Positions 1 to 35,477 of a stretch of DNA of 41,868 nucleotides are shown here, piece by piece (position 1 is the stretch's first letter; each line of letters opens with the position of its first letter). Origin of the DNA: a virus (lineage: Duplodnaviria; Caudoviricetes). The notes beneath the pieces are model-generated. The model was not told the origin of the DNA. It made no database searches and worked only from the letters and a program-made list of their open reading frames with translations. The position numbers were made by a program, and so were the translations under genes. The stretch lies in the IMG/VR virus record IMGVR_UViG_3300045242_000062, positions 1 through 41,868 of that record; one strand, written 5' to 3'.

Positions 1-69
1 TTCTGTGACAAGGAGTCCACTCGTCAAGGTCATGCTTGCAGTGTGGGACAAAATGTCCCACTCTTGACA
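1..69. promoter_or_regulatory. cI/cro intergenic switch: operators and divergent promoters
   Basis: Palindrome GTGGGACA-AAA-TGTCCCAC at 43-61; related TGAC-N5-GTCC at 6-18; minus-strand TTGACG-N16-CAGAAT pointing at the cro-like gene; plus-strand TTGACA at 64-69. Confidence 0.65.
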
Positions 70-127
70 CCACAAATGGCAATCGGAATTAGCGGCCTTG
101 CCTCCTACACCATACGAGACGCAAAAG
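1..127. repeat. Exact terminal direct repeat (copy 1); indicates a circular assembly
   Basis: Bases 1-127 are identical to 41742-41868; 127 is a common assembler k-mer length. Confidence 0.95.
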
Positions 128-496
128 TAGGAAGCTCAGCGGATTGGCGAGCGAGTCCGGTGGGCACGCGAGTTGGTCAGCGAGACCGCGACCAATCTCG
201 CAGCATTCCTGGGCGTTGACACTTCCGCCATTCGCCACATCGAACGCGGCGCGCAGCTACCCTCGATCCATATGCTGATGTCACTTTGCCACGCACTACG
301 GATTTCGCCGCAATATCTGATGTGGGGTAGTCTCGAAGGCGTTGATCCAGAACTCGCAGCCCGACTGAAATCGGCACATCCGGAGCTAAGCTGGCCATCA
401 TCGCCGCCTGCTCCTGGCAATACGCGCAATTCCCTACGCGGCAACAACGCGAAGCCCAGGACACGGTCCCGGTATTACGGAGCCGGGGCGAGATAA
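98..496 (+). CDS. XRE-family HTH repressor (CI-like); in-frame TAG at 128-130 (ORF track starts it at 173)
   Basis: Frame reads IGERVRWARELVSETATNLAAFLGVDTSAIRHIERGAQLPSIHMLMSLCHALRISPQYLMWG, an HTH_3 pattern; divergent from a cro-like gene; helix 1 lies upstream of 173; start at TTG 98 is inferred. Confidence 0.75.
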
Positions 497-512
497 TCTC
501 CCCCCTTTTTTG

Positions 513-541
513 TTGACAAACAGGACTATCTGTCCTTACAT
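513..541 (+). promoter_or_regulatory. Sigma70-type early promoter with operator in the spacer
   Basis: TTGACA(513-518)-N17-TTACAT(536-541); spacer holds AGGAC-TATCT-GTCCT, the same GGAC-N5-GTCC core as 43-61. Confidence 0.75.
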
Positions 542-846
542 CCGGACCTGACACCCAGGCACCGGAGCACGGGACGTGCGTCATCTTTTCGGACTCCCCA
601 ACGACTTGGCTTTGCCCACGGCCGGCGGCAACCCACGCCCGGAGATCGGCGCCTGCGACGCAGGGTGTCTCGACTCTGATGCGTCATTTTACCGCAACGC
701 AAGCCAAATTCGTTCGGACAAAACCGGCATTCCCATACCGTTTGGTGATGATGCGCCGCATCAAGCGTTAATCCAGCGTGACAAGCCGCAGAATCCCGCC
801 ATCGTTGCCAAAGTAAACGCGCGTCAAAAAAGTTTTGGAGAGCCAT

Positions 847-1038
847 ATGCCTCGCACACCCCCAACCAGGCGGGGCGTGCCCTACCAGGACGCGATCGAT
901 GCTCTGCACCGGATAAACTTGATGCTTATCAAAATATCAGCCATGCCACGGCTGCCGGGGGCGGCAAGAGCGGAACTACAGGAAGCGATGGTGTTCCTCG
1001 CACTGCTCTTGGCCTCGGACAACGGCCGCAGTCGCTAG
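847..1038 (+). CDS. Hypothetical early protein
   Basis: GGAGAG RBS before ATG 847; 63-aa helical ORF. Confidence 0.55.
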   Translation: MPRTPPTRRGVPYQDAIDALHRINLMLIKISAMPRLPGAARAELQEAMVFLALLLASDNGRSR

Positions 1039-1116
1039 CCGACGCCCCACAACTCATTCCGCCGCCGCGGTTTCCCGTGCCGCTCCCGCCCGGCTACCTG
1101 CCAGGAGTGGTCTAGG

Positions 1117-1308
1117 ATGCGCGCGCAATTACTCCGCGACATGCTCGCCGCCATCGAGGAGCATCGCCACGCCACCGGCGCTGACCGCGACTACTGGCGC
1201 GGCATCGCGCTCGACCAGATCCGCGAGTTCCGCCGCCGCTACCTCCGGCCGGAAAGGCTGGCATTCGAGGCGGCGATCGCACGCAACCAAGTCAGGAGGG
1301 CAGCATGA
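1117..1308 (+). CDS. Hypothetical protein
   Basis: High GC3; ATGA coupling to next gene. Confidence 0.7.
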   Translation: MRAQLLRDMLAAIEEHRHATGADRDYWRGIALDQIREFRRRYLRPERLAFEAAIARNQVRRAA

Positions 1309-1538
1309 TCGATGCCGCGAGGATCGTAGCCGAGCTACGCGCGCAGGAGTTGCTGACCGCACTCCAGGCCGCCGTGAACGGCGACAGCCACTGGCGCCAC
1401 CGTGCGAGCGCGCTGCTGCGCTCGATCGCCGACCTGGAACTGCCCGAGCAGGTGACCGACGCAATGCGCGCGATCGACGCTCGCCAGCGCGCCGCCGAGG
1501 TGATGCAGGATGTCATGTGGAGCGACTGTAGTGGCTGA
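1305..1538 (+). CDS. Hypothetical protein
   Basis: AGGAGG RBS; coupled start. Confidence 0.7.
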   Translation: MIDAARIVAELRAQELLTALQAAVNGDSHWRHRASALLRSIADLELPEQVTDAMRAIDARQRAAEVMQDVMWSDCSG

Positions 1539-1995
1539 CATATCCCCGTACAAGCTCGAACGCGCCATGGCTGCCGTATCGCGCCTCAAGGCCGAGTTGG
1601 CCGAGCAGGACGCCGACATGATCCTGGCCAGCATCGAGAGCGAAACCAATGCGCTGGAGATGATGGACAAGGTGCTTGAGGCGGTCGTTGCCGACGAACT
1701 GCTGGTTGAGCAGGGATCTGCGCGGCTGAAACGCATCGAGGCCCGCGCCAATCGGCACCGCCTGATCCTGCGCGCGATGATGGAAGAAATCGCCGAGAAG
1801 GTCGAGCGGCCGCTTGGCACGCTGTCGATCAGCTATCGCACGAAGCCCATCGTGACGGACGCCAGCCTATTGCCCACGACGTTGCTGCGCACCGCCCCCG
1901 ACATGCAGGCCATCGCCAAGGCGCTGAAGGTCGGCCCGGTGGCTGGCATTGAGGCGTCGAACCCGGCGCCGGTGCTCACTCTGAGGATAAGCTGA
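1531..1995 (+). CDS. Siphovirus Gp157-like protein
   Basis: Coiled-coil N-terminus (SIESETNALEMMDKVL), C-terminal APDMQAIAKALKVGPVAG...LTLR; adjacent to annealase. Confidence 0.7.
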   Translation: MADISPYKLERAMAAVSRLKAELAEQDADMILASIESETNALEMMDKVLEAVVADELLVEQGSARLKRIEARANRHRLILRAMMEEIAEKVERPLGTLSISYRTKPIVTDASLLPTTLLRTAPDMQAIAKALKVGPVAGIEASNPAPVLTLRIS

Positions 1996-2921
1996 TGAAC
2001 GCTCTCACCACCCAGATGCCGCTCGCCTATGGCGACATTGAACGCCTCGCCAGCAGCATCGCACAGAGCGGGCTGTTCGGCATCAAGACCAAAGACCAGG
2101 CCATCGTCCTGATGATGATCGCTCATGCCGAGGGCCGGCATCCGGCCCTGGCAGCGCGTGATTACGATATCATCAACGGCCGCCCCGCGAAGAAGGCCGA
2201 GGCTATGATGCGCGACTTTCTGGAAGCCGGCGGCAAGGTCGAGTGGCACCAGCTATCGGACACCATCGCCGATGCGACATTCACCCACCCACAGACCGGC
2301 TCGGTGCGCATCGACTGGGACATGGAGCGGGCCAGGACCGCGTTCGGAACCAAGGATATGTACAAGAAGTTCCCGCGCCAGATGTTGCGAAGCCGGGTGA
2401 TATCCGAGGGCGTCAGAACACTCTGGCCGCTCGCCACCAGCGGGTTCTACGAACCTGGCGAGGCTGCCGATATCCCCGCCAAGGATGAGCACAACGGCCC
2501 GACGATCGAGCCGGACACCCGTGACACGCTGAACGCCGAGGTGCCATTGAAAGCTGTGGCATCTACCACGCCGCGCGCCCCAGTCAAGCGAGCCCCGCGC
2601 GCCCCAGTCAAGCGAGCCCCGGTGGACGCCAGCGATGCCTACCAAGCGCCGCCGGAGCCACCGCCCACGGGTCGCCGCACGGCCGGTCAGTTGCTGGACG
2701 GCATCGAAATCGCGCTTCGTGATGCAACCAGCCGCGTCGAGGTCGATCGCATCCTCGATGTCGAGGAGGTGTTCAGGCTGCGCGAGCACTTTGCGGATGA
2801 CACCCCCGCTATCCTGCGCCTGAACGCCATGCGTGATGCTGCCCTGGAGCGTCACCCACCATTGTCCCGCGAGGACGACGGCACCGAGGCGCACGAGCCG
2901 GCGACGGAGGGTGTGGCGTGA
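1995..2921 (+). CDS. RecT/Red-beta-like single-strand annealing protein
   Basis: Motifs IINGRPAKKAEAM, YKKFPRQMLRSRVISEGVR and GFYEPGE, followed by a Pro-rich linker and a C-terminal domain. Confidence 0.7.
   Translation: MNALTTQMPLAYGDIERLASSIAQSGLFGIKTKDQAIVLMMIAHAEGRHPALAARDYDIINGRPAKKAEAMMRDFLEAGGKVEWHQLSDTIADATFTHPQTGSVRIDWDMERARTAFGTKDMYKKFPRQMLRSRVISEGVRTLWPLATSGFYEPGEAADIPAKDEHNGPTIEPDTRDTLNAEVPLKAVASTTPRAPVKRAPRAPVKRAPVDASDAYQAPPEPPPTGRRTAGQLLDGIEIALRDATSRVEVDRILDVEEVFRLREHFADDTPAILRLNAMRDAALERHPPLSREDDGTEAHEPATEGVA
2571..2620 (+). repeat. 24-bp perfect tandem duplication (PRAPVKRA x2) in the annealase linker
   Basis: ccgcgcgccccagtcaagcgagcc occurs twice in tandem. Confidence 0.9.
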
Positions 2922-3139
2922 AAGCATCAATCATTGTCGCCAGCACCTTAACCGCCATTCTGGTGCTACCTCAGTTGGTGTTCGTCACACTCACAGGGGC
3001 GGAGGCTATCGTCGCGACGATTCACTCGTTCTGTGCCGCCTTTCTGGTGATGATCTTTGCACCACAACTTGCGCAATTCGTGCCTCACGGGGTGCCGTCA
3101 GGCGGCGGGAATGATCCTTTGGACAGGCTGATGCGATGA
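2918..3139 (+). CDS. Small membrane protein (2 predicted TM helices)
   Basis: GGAGG RBS, GTGA coupling, two hydrophobic segments. Confidence 0.6.
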   Translation: MKASIIVASTLTAILVLPQLVFVTLTGAEAIVATIHSFCAAFLVMIFAPQLAQFVPHGVPSGGGNDPLDRLMR

Positions 3140-3447
3140 ACTGGAACATGGCCGTTTGGCTATCGTGTGGCGGCCTGATGCTCGCAGTTGTCGCCGGCAT
3201 GTCAGCGCTGATTGCGTGGGTCATCCGGGGCGGCAATGTCTATACGATCCGTCCGAGATTTGGATCCATGAGCCTGTGGTGGTGTGACGACTGCAAGATC
3301 GCCTATGCCCCAGGCCCGTCCTGCCCACGCTGCGGCAAGGGTGGTATCTGGCAACGCTGGCTTATGGACGTTTGCAGAGGTGGCCGATGGACCAGAAATC
3401 GTTGCATGACAGGTTGCTACCCGCTGCCCGAAATGATGTGTTTGTAG
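3136..3447 (+). CDS. Hypothetical protein: TM helix plus CxxC-CxxC Zn ribbon
   Basis: ATGA coupling; WCDDC...CPRCG motif; the 3' end overlaps the next gene and is uncertain. Confidence 0.5.
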   Translation: MNWNMAVWLSCGGLMLAVVAGMSALIAWVIRGGNVYTIRPRFGSMSLWWCDDCKIAYAPGPSCPRCGKGGIWQRWLMDVCRGGRWTRNRCMTGCYPLPEMMCL

Positions 3448-3572
3448 CAATTCAAGCTGCGATGCTCGCCGTCACGAATGGCGATCCTGCGGCGACTAAG
3501 CAGTGCCTGGAAATTGCTCTAAGTGAACTGAAAAGCTGGCAGACTGCCCGCACCGTGCCGCCGGTCAGGTGA
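3387..3572 (+). CDS. Hypothetical protein
   Basis: GAGG RBS; coupled to next gene (TGATG). Confidence 0.6.
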   Translation: MDQKSLHDRLLPAARNDVFVAIQAAMLAVTNGDPAATKQCLEIALSELKSWQTARTVPPVR

Positions 3573-4183
3573 TGATCGCTGCGCTCTATGTTGAAGCGGA
3601 CGGTGTATATGCGGGGCTTCCCGGCGTCGATCTCTGGGATAAGGTACGCGATGCGCGAACCTATGCCGGGCCGCATTCCGTCGTGGCGCATCCGCCATGC
3701 CAGAGGTGGTGCAGATTGGCTCCGGTCAATCTAGCTCGATACGGCCAAGCGATCGGCGATGATGCCGGTTGCTTCACAGCGGCACTAGCATCGGTGCGCC
3801 GCTGGGGCGGTGTGTTGGAACATCCGGCATACAGCCGCGCGTGGCTCGCGCATCATATACCATGGCCTGGGGAAGCCGGGGGCTGGCAACGTGATGCCGA
3901 TGGCGGTTGGTGTTGCTACGTCGAGCAGATCAGTTATGGCCACCAGGCGCGCAAACCAACGTGGCTTTATGCCGTTGGCGTCGATCTACCAGAACTCAGA
4001 TGGGGACGTGGGTCGGACCCAGCGGCGTGGATAGGAACGAGCCAAGCCAGGAATAGAGCAGCGCTCGGCGTGCGCGGGATAGCACAACTTAGCGGACGCG
4101 CATCTAGCGAGACGCCGCTGGAGTTCCGCGATCTGCTGATCTCGATCGCCGCGACGGCGCAGCGGCAGGCGGTTGCAGCATGA
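3572..4183 (+). CDS. Short DNA cytosine-C5 methyltransferase-like protein
   Basis: VVAHPPCQ (motif IV-like), GVLEHP (motif VI-like), YGHQARKPTWLY (motif VIII-like); canonical motif I not evident. Confidence 0.6.
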   Translation: MIAALYVEADGVYAGLPGVDLWDKVRDARTYAGPHSVVAHPPCQRWCRLAPVNLARYGQAIGDDAGCFTAALASVRRWGGVLEHPAYSRAWLAHHIPWPGEAGGWQRDADGGWCCYVEQISYGHQARKPTWLYAVGVDLPELRWGRGSDPAAWIGTSQARNRAALGVRGIAQLSGRASSETPLEFRDLLISIAATAQRQAVAA

Positions 4184-4334
4184 GCCGCATCGCCACCCTA
4201 GCCGGACCTGGCACGCCGCGGTCGCCGGACTCCCACATCTGCACCGTGCGCAGCGTGCATTCCAGCGCGTCGGCGAACTGCTGGCGCGTCATGCCGAGCC
4301 GTTCGCGCGCCGCCGCCACATCAGCGGGCGACAC
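4104..4334 (-). CDS. XRE-family HTH regulator
   Basis: SPADVAAARERLGMTRQQFADALECTLRTVQMWESGDRGVPGP. Confidence 0.8.
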   Translation of the reverse strand: MSPADVAAARERLGMTRQQFADALECTLRTVQMWESGDRGVPGPARVAMRLMLQPPAAAPSRRSRSADRGTPAASR

Positions 4335-4524
4335 GACGACGCTTCGGCGTGTGGGTGGCAACGACCATGCCGTCGAGCAGGATGCGGTGGGCGTGGTCGC
4401 TATAGGCGTAGAGGCTGATCTGCGCCGCTGCCTGCTCGGTCGTGGCCGTCACGGCGCCCTCGGAGCGAAGCTCCCAGCCAGCGCCCCGGTCCATCTCGAT
4501 CCGCATGGTGTGGGTGTTTTCCAT
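4321..4524 (-). CDS. Small hypothetical protein co-transcribed with the HTH gene
   Basis: ATG 6 nt after a -10 box; overlaps the HTH start. Confidence 0.65.
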   Translation of the reverse strand: MENTHTMRIEMDRGAGWELRSEGAVTATTEQAAAQISLYAYSDHAHRILLDGMVVATHTPKRRRVAR

Positions 4525-4530
4525 ACCCAC

Positions 4531-4571
4531 CTTATAGCGAATAATGTTCGTGGGTGCAAGAACAATGTTCG
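4531..4571 (-). promoter_or_regulatory. Promoter TTGCAC-N17-TATAAG with two palindromic operators
   Basis: -35 at 4554-4559, -10 at 4531-4536; CGAATAATGTTCG (4538-4550) and AGAACAATGTTCG (4559-4571). Confidence 0.7.
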
Positions 4572-4781
4572 CGCGCTAGCGGATATACAGAATGCTAAAG
4601 TCCCCGTAAACGCTGGTATGCAGAAGTTGGTTACATTCGCGGACGGCACGAAAAGCCTCTGGCGCAGCGGTATCCGTGATGCCGCCGATGCCGAAACCGG
4701 GCGGCACAGCGAGCGCCGCATTGCTTACCGCGCGTTATGGATTAGTGCCACAATTTGCTGCCACAATGGTATAACCCTCTG

Positions 4782-5636
4782 ATGGACAGAGATAAATCTG
4801 AGCCATTCCACATTGAAGGCCCGGCCATCGTCAGCTTCAGCGGCGGCCGGACCTCTGGCTACATGCTATGGCGCATTCTGCAGGCACACGACGGCACGCT
4901 GCCTGAGGGCGTGACCGTATGCTTCGCCAACACCGGCCGCGAGATGCCGGCCACGCTCGACTTCGTGCGGGACTGCGCGGCGCAATGGAGCGTGCCGATC
5001 CGCTGGCTGGAATACCGATGGGAGCCGGGCCGGCATAGCTACGCCGAAGTTTCGCACAACAGCGCCAGCCGGGACGGCGAACCCTTCGAGCAACTGTTAA
5101 CGGCACGGCCGGCGCTGCCCAACCCCGTGCAGCGGTCATGCACAGCCGAGCTAAAGATCAGAACCATGAAGCGGCTTGTGCAGGCCGAGTTCCACTGGGA
5201 GCACTGGACGAATATCGTCGGACTCCGCGCCGACGAAGCTGGCCGGGTGTTCCGCGCCACGCGCGACACGAAGGACCGCTGGACCGTCATCTGTCCGCTG
5301 CATACCGCTGGCGTGGTGCATGACGACGTGATGCAGTTCTGGAAGCGGCAACCCTTCGATCTGAGGTTGGCCGGCCCGTGGGAGGGCAACTGCGACGGCT
5401 GCTTCCTGAAAAGCCGTGGCGCTGTCACCCGCATGCTCGAAGATCACCCGGCCCGCATGGCGTGGTGGCGACGCATGGAGGCGATGCCGAGAGGCGGTCC
5501 TGGCGTCAATCGGCTGTTCCGGTCTGACCGGGAAAGCTATGCGCAACTGACTGAGATCGTCGCGCGCCAGGGAAAGCTGCCGTTCAACGTGTTCGAGCCA
5601 GAACCCGGCTGCACGGAATGGGCATGCACCGACTGA
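4782..5636 (+). CDS. Phosphoadenosine phosphosulfate (PAPS) reductase family protein
   Basis: PP-loop VSFSGGRTSG, FANTGRE, CTAELKI, VGLRADE, GNCDGCFLK. Confidence 0.85.
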   Translation: MDRDKSEPFHIEGPAIVSFSGGRTSGYMLWRILQAHDGTLPEGVTVCFANTGREMPATLDFVRDCAAQWSVPIRWLEYRWEPGRHSYAEVSHNSASRDGEPFEQLLTARPALPNPVQRSCTAELKIRTMKRLVQAEFHWEHWTNIVGLRADEAGRVFRATRDTKDRWTVICPLHTAGVVHDDVMQFWKRQPFDLRLAGPWEGNCDGCFLKSRGAVTRMLEDHPARMAWWRRMEAMPRGGPGVNRLFRSDRESYAQLTEIVARQGKLPFNVFEPEPGCTEWACTD

Positions 5637-5729
5637 GCGATCTGTCAACGGCAGGTAAGACGTTGAGAACGCCCAATACACAGTTGGGTAACGAGCAGAT
5701 TAGCAAACCCTCGTTTGCAGGAGTGGCCG

Positions 5730-5897
5730 ATGTCAACCCGCTATAACGTCGTGGTTGAACGCGAGGAATACGACGAGGCCACCGGCAAGGTGACCGGGCG
5801 TGCCGAATACCGCATCGACGCCTATGGCCTGCTCCAAGAGGCGTGGGACGCCGTGCAGGAACAGGTCGAAAAGTTAGGCTGGTTCGATGACAGATGA
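5730..5897 (+). CDS. Small acidic hypothetical protein
   Basis: AGGAG RBS before ATG 5730. Confidence 0.7.
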   Translation: MSTRYNVVVEREEYDEATGKVTGRAEYRIDAYGLLQEAWDAVQEQVEKLGWFDDR

Positions 5898-5933
5898 GCT
5901 ACATCCGATAATCGACGTTGTGAAAGGTAGCCG

Positions 5934-6164
5934 ATGACCGAGCCGCGCGTCGGGGACATGTTAGACTGGCGGATGCACGCTCTCGCCGCCGCTGTATGCG
6001 CCTTCGCTGCGGTCGCGGATGTGGCTGTGGGCTATCCGTGGATCGCCCTGATCCCGGCCCTCGCCGCAGGCTCGTGCTCTATGACCGCCGTTGATTGCTG
6101 GTATCGCCGAAAGTCTTTCGGCTACGGCTACCGATGCCGACCTACCATCGACAAGACCAGTTAG
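5934..6164 (+). CDS. Small membrane protein
   Basis: Two hydrophobic helices; AAAGG upstream. Confidence 0.6.
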   Translation: MTEPRVGDMLDWRMHALAAAVCAFAAVADVAVGYPWIALIPALAAGSCSMTAVDCWYRRKSFGYGYRCRPTIDKTS

Positions 6165-6176
6165 CGGAGGAACCTG

Positions 6177-6296
6177 ATGGCGCTTGCTCTCTGCCTCGCC
6201 GTCCTCGGTGCTGGCGGTGCCATGCTGGCCGCGCTGGTGCTGATCCACATCGCGTCCCAAAACGCACTTAGCGGACGGAATGACGCAGACGTGTGA
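6177..6296 (+). CDS. 39-aa single-TM peptide (MALALCLAVLGAGGAMLAALVLIHIASQNALSGRNDADV)
   Basis: GGAGG RBS 6 nt before ATG; hand-translated, below the ORF-track cutoff. Confidence 0.55.
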   Translation: MALALCLAVLGAGGAMLAALVLIHIASQNALSGRNDADV

Positions 6297-6364
6297 CACG
6301 ACTGAATCACGACTGAATCTGCTTACCACGCCTTTGTAGGAGCCGCCTTATTTACCCCGAGGCC

Positions 6365-6458: not shown

Positions 6459-7103
6459 TCATAGGGTTTTGCGACGCACCAGACCAAGGCCGAGCAGCCC
6501 GACGCCGAGCGCCGCCATGCTCACCGGCTCCGGCACCGCGGTGGCCGAGAAATCGCCCGAGACGGAAGCGCCGAAGCTGGCCAGGGTATCCCCGTCGATG
6601 CCAATGGCCGGCGACACGTTGGCGAAGGAGAGGGATACCGCGCGCGGCAGCGCCAGGACGTTGATCACATCGGACGTGAATGAGATGCTATCCGGCGGCG
6701 CGCCAGAGGACAGGACCGCCGAGGCGCCGGTCCCCAGCACCACGTCGGAGAAAGTGCCGCTCAGGAAGTTCGTTCCCGTTCCCCCGGCCCCCGAGGTCAG
6801 CGAGAAGCTGCCGGCGTAGTGCTGGAACCCGCCGGCGCCGAGCGGCGTCACCGCGTCCGTGGACGTGATGTTGAGGTCGAAGTCCGCCGAGGTCGGTGCA
6901 CCGCCGAGGATCTGCGTAATGCTGACCGGGACATCGGCAGCGGTGATCGTCGTCGCAGTGCCGCCGGCGTTCGCAGTCGCCGTGATGGTATTGCCGGCAC
7001 CGATTTGGCCGAAGGTCAGGATGACGGCGCCCTGTGCAGGCAGGGCGAGCAGGGCAGCAGCAGAGGCAGCGAGCAGGGCGCGCAGCATGGTGGGCTCTTT
7101 CAT
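6459..7103 (-). CDS. PEP-CTERM sorting-domain surface protein
   Basis: Signal peptide MLRALLAASAAALLALPAQG; Ser/Thr/Gly-rich body; C-terminal VPEPVSMAALGVGLLGLGLVRRK. Confidence 0.9.
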   Translation of the reverse strand: MKEPTMLRALLAASAAALLALPAQGAVILTFGQIGAGNTITATANAGGTATTITAADVPVSITQILGGAPTSADFDLNITSTDAVTPLGAGGFQHYAGSFSLTSGAGGTGTNFLSGTFSDVVLGTGASAVLSSGAPPDSISFTSDVINVLALPRAVSLSFANVSPAIGIDGDTLASFGASVSGDFSATAVPEPVSMAALGVGLLGLGLVRRKTL

Positions 7104-29414: not shown

Positions 29415-31607
29415 TTAGGCCGGCTGTCCCGGCCGTGGGATCGGCGTCTGTGCGAGCCGATTGGTCGTCACCATCGTCTGGTGCGTGTTGGCGATCTCGC
29501 CCACGGTCTGGTGCGGGATCTGCGCCGCCTTCGCCGCGGTCAACGCCGCCTGCGCCTGCGTGTTGCGGATGTCAGCGGCCTTCTTGTGCAAATCCACCAG
29601 GTGGTGCGCGAGCGCCATCTCCGACGTCATCTGCTCGGGATCGGACGGCTGCATGCCCTGCACGCCCGGCGGGTTGTCCGGCGCCACATTCGGCTGGCCA
29701 TAGGGCGGCGCACTGAAGTCGGCATGAATGCCGTGCACCTTGGCCGCCGCGTTGACCTTGCGCTCCTGCGCCAACGCGAAGTCGGAGGCGGCCTTAGCTT
29801 GTTTGCTTTGGATGTCAGCTTGTGCATGTTGCTGCGCAAGCTGGCCCGCTTGCTGCTGTACCTGCCCTTGCTGCTGCTGATGAGCCTGCATCCGCTGGAG
29901 CAGTTGTTCTTTGTCTTGCAGCCCAGAGGCAGCGATCAGAACATCCCCAGGAATAAGCCCAGGTTGCATACCAGCTAGTTGCACTAGTGTCGCAAATTGT
30001 TCTTGCTGGAGACTCGGGATGTCGATCCCTTCCTCGATCGTTATGTCCACATCGAGGTCGGTAATGTCGTTCTCTATCCCCACCACCTGCTGCAACCGAG
30101 GATCGTCGGGCTGCAACTGCATGCGCTGCATCATCTGCATCCGCATCTGCTCAGGCATCGCCGCGAGGCGGTCCATCACCCGGATCGGGCGGTTGATGCC
30201 CACCCACGTCGTGCCGTTGAGCTCGTCGGTGAGCCTCACCCACTTGCCGCCGGACCAGTATTCGCGCGCGGCCATCCAGCAGCTTTCGTAGACCCGGCGT
30301 GACCAGTAGCGCAGCGCGTCGGCCAACGGCTCGTTCTGCGCCGCACCGCCCGCCTGCTGGGCCAGGATCGCCCGCCCGCTGAGTTCGCGCGGATCGGTGC
30401 CCGACATCGCCGCGTTCGGCCCCGATAGCTGCATTTCCGCTGTCGCGTGTTGCAGCAACTGGAACTGCCCGGACGCCAGATCCGCGCTCTGCTCGATCTC
30501 GAACTTGAACCCCGGCATCACCTCGATGTAACCGTCCGGCTTGGCCACCTCGCGGCGGGCCTTGTCCACGTCCTGCACCGCGCCCTGCTCGGCCACCACC
30601 TGGCGCACCGACAGCAGGTGCAGCGCCTTGGAGCGCCGCTTGTTGATCTCGTCCTGCAACGAAATGAGCCCACGCACCATGCCGTAGCGCTGGTTCTCGC
30701 GGTTGATATACGCCGACTGCAACAGCAGGCTGCACGCGCTCTTACCCTTACGATCCTTGAACCGACTGCGCTGCGGATTGGCGAGAATGCCGTTCTTCGT
30801 GATCGTCGCCTGCCACCACGTACCGCGCTCGTCCCAATGGCACTGCACGACACGCACGCGGCGCCGCCGGTTGTCGGTCCAGAACGCGGTTTCCGGCCTG
30901 TCGTTATAGTAGAAATCCGTGGACGAGAACGACGCCTCGATCACGTCGTCGCCCTCGGGATACAGGCCCTCGAGTTGGTCGCGGTCCATCCAAATGACCA
31001 AGCCCTTGTATCGGCAGTCGCTGAAATCCATCGAGCGGGAATGCGGATCGTAGAAAATGCGATCCCACGGAACGTGCGTGATCGTGATGTTCGCACCGCC
31101 CTGTCCGTCGTCCTCGAGGCCGAGTTCCGCGCCGCCCGCGCCCTCGATCAGCATGTTCTCGAACACGGCGCTGCGGACCAGCGAGAACTCGTTGTCGTCG
31201 CTGATGAACCGCAGCGCCTGCGTGGCGGCCAGGGCGCGGTCGTCCTCGGCCGGCGTGCGCGCAAACGCCTTGGGATCGGTGCGTGCCTTGCGCTCCATGC
31301 CGCAGAGCAGCGAGACCTTGTCGTGGATCTTGTTGATGACGATGGCGGGCTGGCCGCGCTTCTTCAGTTCGTCCAGTTCGTCCTTGGTCCACTGGACGTG
31401 GTCGAAATACTCGCGGTCGCGCTGTGCCAGGTTGATCTCGTCCTGGCGCGCGAGTTCGGACTCCTCGAACCAGCGCACCAGCCGGCCGTGCAGATCGTCG
31501 AGATCGCGCGGATACTCGTCGGCGCCGCTGGTGAGGTCAGCGACGGCCGGCGGCGTGGACGGGCCACGCGGCTCGTGGATGTGGACGTGTAGCGCGGTGT
31601 CGCTCAT
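29415..31607 (-). CDS. Portal protein (P22-like)
   Basis: DREYFDHVQWT...RGQPAIVINKI, YDPHSRSMDFSDCRY, QDEINKRRSK, SGRAILAQQ, Gln-rich barrel tail. Confidence 0.92.
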   Translation of the reverse strand: MSDTALHVHIHEPRGPSTPPAVADLTSGADEYPRDLDDLHGRLVRWFEESELARQDEINLAQRDREYFDHVQWTKDELDELKKRGQPAIVINKIHDKVSLLCGMERKARTDPKAFARTPAEDDRALAATQALRFISDDNEFSLVRSAVFENMLIEGAGGAELGLEDDGQGGANITITHVPWDRIFYDPHSRSMDFSDCRYKGLVIWMDRDQLEGLYPEGDDVIEASFSSTDFYYNDRPETAFWTDNRRRRVRVVQCHWDERGTWWQATITKNGILANPQRSRFKDRKGKSACSLLLQSAYINRENQRYGMVRGLISLQDEINKRRSKALHLLSVRQVVAEQGAVQDVDKARREVAKPDGYIEVMPGFKFEIEQSADLASGQFQLLQHATAEMQLSGPNAAMSGTDPRELSGRAILAQQAGGAAQNEPLADALRYWSRRVYESCWMAAREYWSGGKWVRLTDELNGTTWVGINRPIRVMDRLAAMPEQMRMQMMQRMQLQPDDPRLQQVVGIENDITDLDVDITIEEGIDIPSLQQEQFATLVQLAGMQPGLIPGDVLIAASGLQDKEQLLQRMQAHQQQQGQVQQQAGQLAQQHAQADIQSKQAKAASDFALAQERKVNAAAKVHGIHADFSAPPYGQPNVAPDNPPGVQGMQPSDPEQMTSEMALAHHLVDLHKKAADIRNTQAQAALTAAKAAQIPHQTVGEIANTHQTMVTTNRLAQTPIPRPGQPA

Positions 31608-32326
31608 TGCTGCGGTTGCTGGGTTGCTGCCGCACCGGCGCCGCCTGCCATCAGGCCGGCAATGCCGTATTTGCGCAGGATTTCGATGGTGGCGTCGTTG
31701 AACACCACATGCGTCCTGTCAGGGAGAGTGATGCCAGGAACGCCGGCCGCCCGCAGCTTTTCCATAGCGCCAGGATCATTCAGCGCCGCCTGATCCTTCG
31801 CGCTGAGGCTGCCGTAGTCGAGGAAGCTAGCCGGATCGGCCTTGATGTTGACCTCGTACATATGACCGGCTGTGGGATCGGCTTTTGAGCGCCCGGCATA
31901 ATCCTGTGCCAATCGCTCATCCTGCGCGAAGTAGTGGCCGGCCTCGTCAGGATGCAAGAAACGCGCATCGAACCGCTCGAAATCTGCCGGGCTGCCGTGG
32001 TACGCGGTGAAGCCCTTGCCACCCGGTGCGTCGCCCACCATGCCGAGCACCATCGCCGGCGCCTCCTGCATGCCACGCGCCACCTCGGCCCGTGCACGAT
32101 CCATGTCCGTGCCAAGGATCGGCTGGCCACTCGATGTCATCGCCTCGATCGGGTTGAACGGGCCTGACGGCACGCCCACGGACTGCGACGCATAGGGCGA
32201 GGTCGTCTCCGTCCCCACCGGGTTGCGCATAACCTGCTGCGCCAGCGGGCCGAGCTGATTGGCCGGCGCGCTGTAGTCCTGCGGCAGCACCGTGGGATCG
32301 AACAAGCGACTGAGCCAGCCGGACAT
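31604..32326 (-). CDS. Protein with ADP-ribosyltransferase-like (ART-PolyVal type) domain
   Basis: AYHGSPADFERFD...GHYFAQDERLAQDYA...GHMYEVNI...HVVFND. Confidence 0.6.
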   Translation of the reverse strand: MSGWLSRLFDPTVLPQDYSAPANQLGPLAQQVMRNPVGTETTSPYASQSVGVPSGPFNPIEAMTSSGQPILGTDMDRARAEVARGMQEAPAMVLGMVGDAPGGKGFTAYHGSPADFERFDARFLHPDEAGHYFAQDERLAQDYAGRSKADPTAGHMYEVNIKADPASFLDYGSLSAKDQAALNDPGAMEKLRAAGVPGITLPDRTHVVFNDATIEILRKYGIAGLMAGGAGAAATQQPQQ

Positions 32327-35406: not shown

Positions 35407-35477
35407 GCTGGGATCATCTCCATACGGTCGTTTGCGGATACATCACGACATTGCACGATGTTAGCGCCAGAAAATAA

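Follow-up and report, generated by a model that had tools for sequence, protein, structure and literature searches.

Recombination-type sites with plasmid counterparts at the borders of exchangeable genes in a tailed phage genome

The DNA investigated in this study, a stretch of 41,868 nucleotides referred to as the window (IMG/VR record IMGVR_UViG_3300045242_000062; Caudoviricetes), is a complete virus record of 41.9 kb with terminal repeats, in which the small genes following a gene for a RecT-like protein, at the accessory end of the early operon, harbor an array of short conserved sites. An earlier note on this DNA, made from the letters alone, had listed nine such sites as dif/Xer-like boundaries of a cassette array that is served by a tyrosine recombinase supplied in trans. 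Six of the nine are of a recombination type and belong to two classes, of which the S class (3354, 4600, 5697) resembles the Gin-like site AAA CG NN CG TTT that alphaproteobacterial plasmids carry close upstream of a repC-linked serine recombinase gene and the T class (5901, 6144, 6251) a palindrome found upstream of Cre-like genes on plasmids. The sites indeed bound exchangeable modules and the phage contains no recombinase, but three of the six are serine-type rather than tyrosine-type. A profile search of the complete genome detected neither a PF00589 nor a PF00239 gene and, with neither recombinase encoded in the phage, any enzyme would have to act in trans. In the interpretation that we favor and consider probable, plasmid resolvases act in trans on resolution sites that were captured and multiplied by the phage, thereby swapping, adding and deleting genes. 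The sites are listed below with their ranks out of 83,682 in searches with separate bacterial S and T matrices, which place the S sites of the window at 1-4 and its T sites at 1-3.

3354..3381, plus strand: slot A, S site with core GA; rank 3; its right arm is the ribosome-binding site of gene 3387
4600..4627, plus strand: slot B, S site CG-CT-GG; rank 2; aligns to the site of locus L322 upstream of a serine recombinase
5697..5724, plus strand: slot C, S site CC-CT-CG; rank 1; ribosome-binding site of gene 5730
5901..5928, plus strand: slot D, T site with spacer TCGACG; rank 1; ribosome-binding site of gene 5934
6144..6171, plus strand: slot E, T site with spacer GACCAG; rank 2; ribosome-binding site of open reading frame (ORF) 6177
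6251..6278, plus strand: slot F, T site; rank 3; right arm identical to Roseomonas plasmid sites
35414..35441, minus strand: separate S site with core AC; rank 4; precedes DNA methyltransferase and terminase genes

The anatomy of the sites is that of recombinase targets. All six have an 11-6-11 layout with inner AA and TT, the sites of the array are all direct repeats, and the complementarity of their arms is weak (3-6 of 11 bases). Among 35 phage S sites, positions 12, 13, 16 and 17 are conserved at 80-100% compared to 46-51% for the core, whose bases vary from slot to slot between conserved flanks. Such a pattern, in which positions 6-4 and 3-2 are constrained and the 2-bp core between them is free to vary, is of the Gin type, as described for the gix core in PMC3985619, and the central 20 bp of slot C (reverse strand) are identical to the gix core of Table 1 therein at 13 of 20 positions, as counted by eye. 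In the 32 distinct phage T sites, positions 10, 11, 18 and 19 are invariant and all six spacer positions are variable.

The nine strings of the earlier note are all present where it had placed them and on one strand, although the site at 4599 was one base out of register, its true start at 4600 being fixed by relatives. A position matrix trained on 14 bacterial sites and scored over 41,841 window positions ranks 5901, 6144, 6251, 3354, 5697 and 4600 at 1, 2, 3, 4, 6 and 10, ranks that are partly circular since the training sites had first been located with a phage-derived matrix, which counts against our interpretation. The strings at 4718 and 6316 (ranks 358 and 3136) represent a different conserved element, and the weaker site at 3101 (rank 203) is not conserved in the related phage L001. 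In a palindrome search upstream of 30 Cre-like loci that was blind to the phage, the same centers were recovered in L121, L122, L124, L125, L133, L137 and L149. Upon masking of the Shine-Dalgarno sequence by removal of right-arm positions 6-11 from the scoring, the observed first, third, fifth and sixth best scores were reached by none of 300 region shuffles, and the whole-window ranks of the six sites dropped to 2-47 of 83,682. A T-like sequence at 4072-4099, inside gene 3569-4183, ranks 5 of 41,841 and may be an old fusion point or a chance match.

The assignment of the right arm as ribosome-binding site of the following gene, with ATG codons 16 nt past the TT at 3387, 5730, 5934 and 6177, was correct, and of 70 phage sites, 45 show an ATG at a distance of 15-22 nt past the TT (47 including two at 12 nt). 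Only three of 13 bacterial S sites are followed by an ATG, which suggests that the bases resembling a ribosome-binding site are a property of the arm itself that the phage has likely co-opted: with GAGGT or GGAGG present in the plasmid arm from the start, a gene that comes to lie about 5 nt past it would be translated. The overlap of right arms with ribosome-binding sites and the frequent ATG, together with the existence of a truncated Cre-like protein that lacks the HxxR and Tyr motifs, might suggest that the sites are regulatory operators, bound for instance by this protein or by a resolvase acting as repressor, through which translation or transcription of the cargo is controlled. Junctions would then cluster merely because selection preserves intact starts of genes. 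We find this hardly credible, as operators would not be expected to carry slot-specific cores and spacers in a conserved order, nor to form the two-slot hybrids described below.

The relation to dif, which was central to the earlier note, did not hold. In the inferred host family, a strict dif pattern was found in three of 61 genomes and a looser one in 19 of 41, with 13 of the 19 loci (among L339-L357) kept as candidate Acetobacteraceae dif sites of the consensus CGCA(T/G)AA GATA(T/C)A TTATGGAAA, where the right arm is mostly TTATGGAAA. With the resulting matrix, whose mean self-score is 35.6, 5901 scores only 13.2 and the remaining five sites are placed at 63-3168 of 83,682, and the phage sites lack both the XerD-side arm and the AT-rich spacer of dif. 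Host dif was thus rejected as model site, given this poor fit and the top ranks obtained with the bacterial S and T matrices. That host XerC/XerD would act on these sites, as proposed for pdif modules, might find support in the 11-6-11 geometry with inner AA/TT, in 5901 being the best dif-matrix match in the phage genome, in the resemblance of T left arms to the XerC-side arm and in the availability of Xer in every cell. The scores argue against it, as do arms that fit plasmid sites far better, at up to 22 of 22 positions, and the arrangement as direct repeats compared to the inversely oriented sites of pdif modules that are described in a title cited in PMC7399989. We thus judge an action of XerCD to be very unlikely.

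The counterparts of the S sites reside next to serine recombinases. An S pattern gave 13 matches in 11 of 201 genomes, which constitute the family of an Acetobacteraceae assembly, compared to one match for the control. At nine of the 13 loci a divergent frame for a serine recombinase containing the sequence GYARVST is located 100-109 bp away (in one case 215 bp; one is a fragment). The protein belongs to PF00239 and its best PDB match is described as 'DNA-invertase' (E 8e-41), compared to E 3e-19 for gamma-delta resolvase. Its relatives are found on 607 plasmid records and in two annotated plasmids its gene adjoins repC. In plasmids that were picked by protein, a sequence AAA CG NN CG TT(T/A) is found 40-65 bp upstream of the serine gene in four out of four, one of which repeats a locus of the 13 matches. 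PMC10194956 places RinQ, an enzyme of the invertase/resolvase family, in the vicinity of repABC and describes Cre-like enzymes as recombinases that serve in plasmid maintenance.

Sites of the T class are in turn associated with Cre-like genes, Cre being the sole PDB match. Seven of the 30 best Cre-like loci contain a site with a score of at least 15, a value reached in any of eight shuffles by only two of 30 loci. All seven (five T-type and two S-type) are located upstream of the truncated form. In L151, L154, L155 and L156 a T site is placed between divergent intact and truncated Cre-like genes, and one T site precedes an intact Cre-like integrase in four of five plasmid loci fetched out of 26 records. 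The closest correspondence was found for slot F of phage L116, whose arms are identical to a plasmid site (L162) at 22 of 22 positions. Several bacterial loci combine both classes, in that a serine gene and an S site are followed, about 180-270 bp on, by a T or T-like site and a G element, the conserved element of 6316, and then by a truncated Cre-like or other gene. In L157 a pair of F and G at phage spacing is located between Cre-like genes. The phage order of S, T and G thus copies a plasmid-type intergenic region. From this adjacency we infer the pairing of each enzyme with its site.

Several observations concern the Cre-like proteins themselves. The truncated family (L119:487-1398, minus strand; L121-L127, L130, L133) is often divergent from the intact gene, with a palindrome in between, and followed by a gene that reads by eye as ScpA-like; the protein is possibly a helper or a repressor. 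An intact subfamily with the sequence HGLRAG (L134, L136, L138, L141, L145) is preceded by a palindrome with a 7-bp spacer, ACRCGCGATAA-N7-TTATCGCG. In L151, L162 and L166 a toxin-antitoxin pair of the AbrB/MazE-PIN type is found between T site and intact Cre-like gene, which echoes the toxin-antitoxin pairs next to res sites of Tn3-family elements (PMC7157771).

Counting the window, protein and pattern scans identified 20 phage records with a total of 70 sites. Their order is conserved as A (core GA), B and C (CT), D (TCG...), E, E2, F and G, with slot E carrying the spacer GACCAG or GCACAG across phages, while the genes between slots differ among related phages. The sites occur in unrelated backbones and positions: slot A recurs in L020, L024, L085, L115, L116, L117 and L185 with unrelated left contexts, the array follows an integrase in L185 and other genes in L116 and L117, and mini-arrays precede terminase genes in L194 and L195. 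A contig of metagenome run X1 (record 5) has only C, D and E in common with the window, in this order and with other sequence in between. L002 is near-identical to the window up to the right arm of the site at 35441 on the minus strand, where a different gene follows. The units between the slots of the window are the following.

3387..3572, plus strand: 61-residue cargo gene after slot A; no family match
3569..4183, plus strand: cargo gene matching phrog_12600; function unknown
4104..4530, minus strand: two small ORFs (an HTH_3 protein and a 69-residue partner) between A and B; junctions off sites
4615..5711, plus strand: B-C block; its non-coding ends are conserved and its cargo is variable, in the window a PAPS-reductase-like gene
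4718..4760, plus strand: G' element TTACC R CGC..TGCC W YAAT; fails the S and T matrices
4782..5636, plus strand: PAPS-reductase-like cargo gene (phrog_424, E 1e-52)
5730..5897, plus strand: 55-residue cargo gene; no family match; occurs in L023 without any site
5918..6160, plus strand: D-E cassette of 243 bp, consisting of right arm, gene 5934-6164, left arm and spacer
6177..6296, plus strand: 39-residue ORF reading through slot F
6316..6355, plus strand: G element closing the array, 65 nt past F; not an 11-6-11 site

The turnover of this cargo is tied to the sites. A comparison of nine records, which leaves out L113 and where ends are not independent, gave 77 distinct alignment ends, of which 31 are located within a 28-bp site, against an expected 6.7, and 48 come to within 10 nt of one, against an expected 11.6, so that the ends of gene gains and losses in relatives map to the sites, as the earlier note had anticipated. 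The D-E cassette and the adjoining slot E illustrate this relationship. In L020, left arm and spacer of D are joined to the right arm of E with exactly 5918-6160 missing; in L002 and in record 5 of X1 the cassette is replaced by another gene; and in L001 an extra gene of 0.6 kb is present at 6160|6161 of slot E, which brings its own right arm in front and its own left arm and spacer behind. The B-C block shows an equivalent behavior. L001, L116 and L188 contain a single CG-CT-CG site in its place, whereas CG-CT-GG and CC-CT-CG surround the block in the window, L002 and L020, with the same ends and different cargo, which is the pattern expected of crossover inside the CT core.

Crossover positions were narrowed down in 12 hybrid triplets chosen by hand, automatic hybrid calling having returned only two cases. 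For T sites, three triplets cross after 16-17 and before 20-21 and one after 14 and before 17. For S sites, the hybrid in L001 crosses after 13 and before 16 and is the only triplet that requires a central crossover. The D x E junction in L020 and the E x E2 junction between L001 and the window are located at the edge between spacer and arm, where only two to three bases are shared.

The mechanism we propose would start with the capture of the resolution region of a plasmid by an ancestral phage. At S sites, crossover by the serine enzyme would take place within the two central bases, whereas at T sites the Cre-like enzyme would exchange strands where the 6-bp spacer meets the arm. Co-infecting phages with the same core or spacer would then trade the block between two slots, and rarer events between mismatched spacers would delete or insert single genes. 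A wider reading, which we find possible though somewhat doubtful, is that soil phages of Acetobacteraceae have turned the dimer-resolution sites of host plasmids into an addressable cassette platform of two chemistries, with S slots distinguished by 2-bp cores, T slots by 6-bp spacers and a built-in ribosome-binding site, which is run wholly by plasmid enzymes. In this reading, the sites may also offer the phages, most of which lack an integrase, a way into plasmids as prophages.

A number of results weigh against this interpretation. With respect to the motif, left arms are degenerate and do not reach significance by themselves (67-133 of 300 shuffles, k=3-6), and the arms of S and T are similar enough for one symmetric matrix to find both. 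A strict symmetric consensus gave two matches in the 201 genomes and two in the control, so that this search, one match of which adjoins Cre-like genes, was useful only as a lead, and the T site of L327 adjoins a serine gene in a contig that is devoid of Cre-like genes. With respect to the junctions, 27 of 77 alignment ends are more than 25 nt away from any site and a 50-bp deletion in L001 has just one end at a site. Of the 12 triplets, two are uninformative and one is conflicting, the S hybrids of L020 and L024 permit either the center or the left spacer edge, and L185 (in two views) crosses before position 13 and thus off-center. Spacers of differing sequence are combined in the D x E and E x E2 hybrids, an event that Cre-type enzymes normally disfavor, while same-slot swaps keep the common spacer. 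Neither a circle joint nor a phage-plasmid cointegrate was detected in the contigs of runs X1-X4, four of 24 listed metagenome runs of which the assembled contigs were searched, which drop rare forms. Finally, a capsid relative (62%) is found in only one of the 201 family genomes, where the head-gene remnant (G150) is without a site.

The main rival to site-specific exchange is offered by the protein encoded directly 5' of the array.

1995..2921, plus strand: RecT-like annealing protein (phrog_561, E 4e-8)

In this alternative, the sites are relics of plasmid DNA that were kept as ribosome-binding-site linkers, genes are exchanged through these short common sequences by the RecT-like protein of the phage and no site-specific enzyme is now involved. 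The position of the gene, the near identity over 25-35 nt that is common to same-slot swaps (as in record 5 of X1), the degenerate left arms, the off-center junction of L185 and the location of about a third of junctions away from sites are all in line with it. So is slot F, whose arms are one base closer in the window than in L002 and L116 and which is thus possibly inactive here. RecT-driven exchange explains same-slot swaps but not the unlike-slot junctions, which share only two to three bases and yet fall on the edge between spacer and arm; moreover, T sites have kept both arms and their 6-bp spacing, which a ribosome-binding site does not need. We thus regard this alternative as rather unlikely. 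Array-type sites are found downstream in only four of 18 RecT-related viral loci (L001, L002, L010, L012), and the array is thus not general to relatives of RecT. The recT-like gene of the window itself contains an exact tandem duplication of 24 nt at 2571-2622 that is absent in L001, as judged by length.

Alternatively, one plasmid enzyme, most likely the Cre-like one, might act on all six sites, with the division into S and T reflecting ancestry only. Such a scenario would be compatible with the similarity of the arms noted above, with S junctions in L185, L020 and L024 that permit a cut at the left edge and with the presence, in L152, L153 and L168, of truncated Cre-like genes downstream of the S site. 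It is at odds with the fixed distance between S site and serine gene, which holds at nine of 13 loci as well as for plasmids from three further genera, with the sharply differing spacer conservation of the two classes and with the L001 hybrid, which needs a central crossover, and we consider it improbable.

Other elements accompany the slots. In L002 and L020, B is followed by G' at a distance of 117-118 nt, G' is also found in the bacterial locus L156, and the spacing from F to G is 64-66 nt in the window, L001, L002, L085, L113, L115, L116 and L117. G recurs upstream of genes and resembles a -35 box that is followed, after 18 bp, by an extended -10 box. G and G' are likely promoters, the latter for the cargo gene, although neither was listed in a sigma-70 scan. 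A gapped F-G pattern was too loose for use in viral contigs, where only L303, L310 and L315 of 120 stretches passed the filter beyond known arrays. A conserved upstream extension of slot B (about 4585-4599) also precedes plasmid S sites, and ORF 3136-3447, upstream of gene 3387, reads through slot A. The reverse pair of HTH_3 and 69-residue genes (4104-4560), with its variable promoter region, is common to L001, L024 and L185. A scan with the PAPS-reductase gave a single locus, which is unrelated. It is plausible that the cargo, comprising methyltransferases, the PAPS-reductase-like gene and a Lar-family protein, serves in counter-defence. In a distant phage group (L012:10059-11406; L181), three direct-repeat S sites with core TC precede small genes. 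In L024, two C-type sites are separated by about 140 bp of inserted non-coding sequence (3502-3645), which has no Rfam match and folds no better than shuffles (z 0.11); Rfam gave no match in any of the seven sources scanned, the window among them.

With respect to the phage itself, the genes of the window include a P22-like portal, capsid, terminase, helix-turn-helix repressor-like, YdaS-like, RecT-like and PEP-CTERM genes. The PEP-CTERM gene (6459-7103, minus strand) is located beside the array and 99% identical in L001, and a gene with an ART-PolyVal ADP-ribosyltransferase domain (31604-32326, minus strand) is found between terminase and portal genes. PF00239 was above cut-off in none of 19 records searched and PF00589 is present in four of them, where the proteins do not align to the plasmid Cre-like proteins (best E 0.25). 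A PF00589 integrase is absent from six of seven near-complete site-bearing records (G000, G207, G208, G211, G216, G220); the window nonetheless contains a repressor-like gene pair. The host likely belongs to the Acetobacteraceae, searches with terminase and capsid having provided no host name, and the metagenome runs that contain the window stretch originate from soil or root, two of which may have supplied this DNA.

Breaks in phage mosaics at gene borders are usually credited to random recombination followed by selection, or to short common linkers. Borders with recognizable sites and named candidate enzymes make this question testable with two proteins and six 28-bp sites. If true, our interpretation would define a route by which plasmids shape the accessory genes of phages, and it would provide candidate target sites for two common and little-studied families of plasmid recombinases as well as natural orthogonal site sets.

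The array shares features with several known systems. The S sites have the AAA-2-core-2-TTT layout and the variable 2-bp core of gix and hix (PMC3985619), although, unlike in Gin and Hin inversion, they are direct repeats around cargo, with no invertible segment and no enzyme in the phage. The serine gene is placed beside repC as in RinQ-type repABC-linked recombinases, a likeness by description only, and Cre-like genes adjoin toxin-antitoxin pairs, which relates them to the Cre-like resolvases of plasmids (both PMC10194956). A parallel to L154-L156 is offered by TnpS/TnpT and rst of Tn4651-type transposons, where the site likewise separates a tyrosine recombinase gene from that of a divergent helper; the partner in L154-L156 is a truncated Cre-like protein, whereas TnpT is described as lacking evident homologues among other proteins in PMC7157771. 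In the pdif modules of Acinetobacter plasmids, gene modules without recombinase are likewise bounded by 28-bp sites, with an enzyme proposed in trans (PMC7399989). The phage sites differ from these in being non-dif direct repeats of a serine and a tyrosine class, in their residence in a tailed phage and in their plasmid- rather than chromosome-like character. On plasmids each site occurs once, its usual reading being multimer resolution, while the phage contains several copies with distinct cores.

In integrons, IntI acts with attI, and attC sites are long imperfect hairpins with RYYYAAC/GTTRRRY sequences; CALINs (clusters of attC sites lacking integron-integrases) are devoid of the integrase. 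The likeness to integrons and CALINs resides in co-oriented single-gene units, with T cassettes starting at TT and ending with the next left arm and spacer. Unlike in an integron, the phage contains no IntI (no PF00589) and its slots are conserved in order instead of being stacked at one entry site; as judged by eye only, no attC-type hairpin is apparent and the right arms are not GTTRRRY. Lambdoid boundary or linker sequences and T4-type PeSL (promoter early stem-loop) cassettes are short conserved sequences at gene borders explained by homologous recombination, from which the sites of the phage array are distinguished by the anatomy of recombinase sites and a plasmid counterpart. No description of such phage arrays was found in the literature searched, which comprised few subscription journals and no supplements. 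Collectively, the array resembles pdif modules or a cassette array without integrase in the way it works and is a member of neither.

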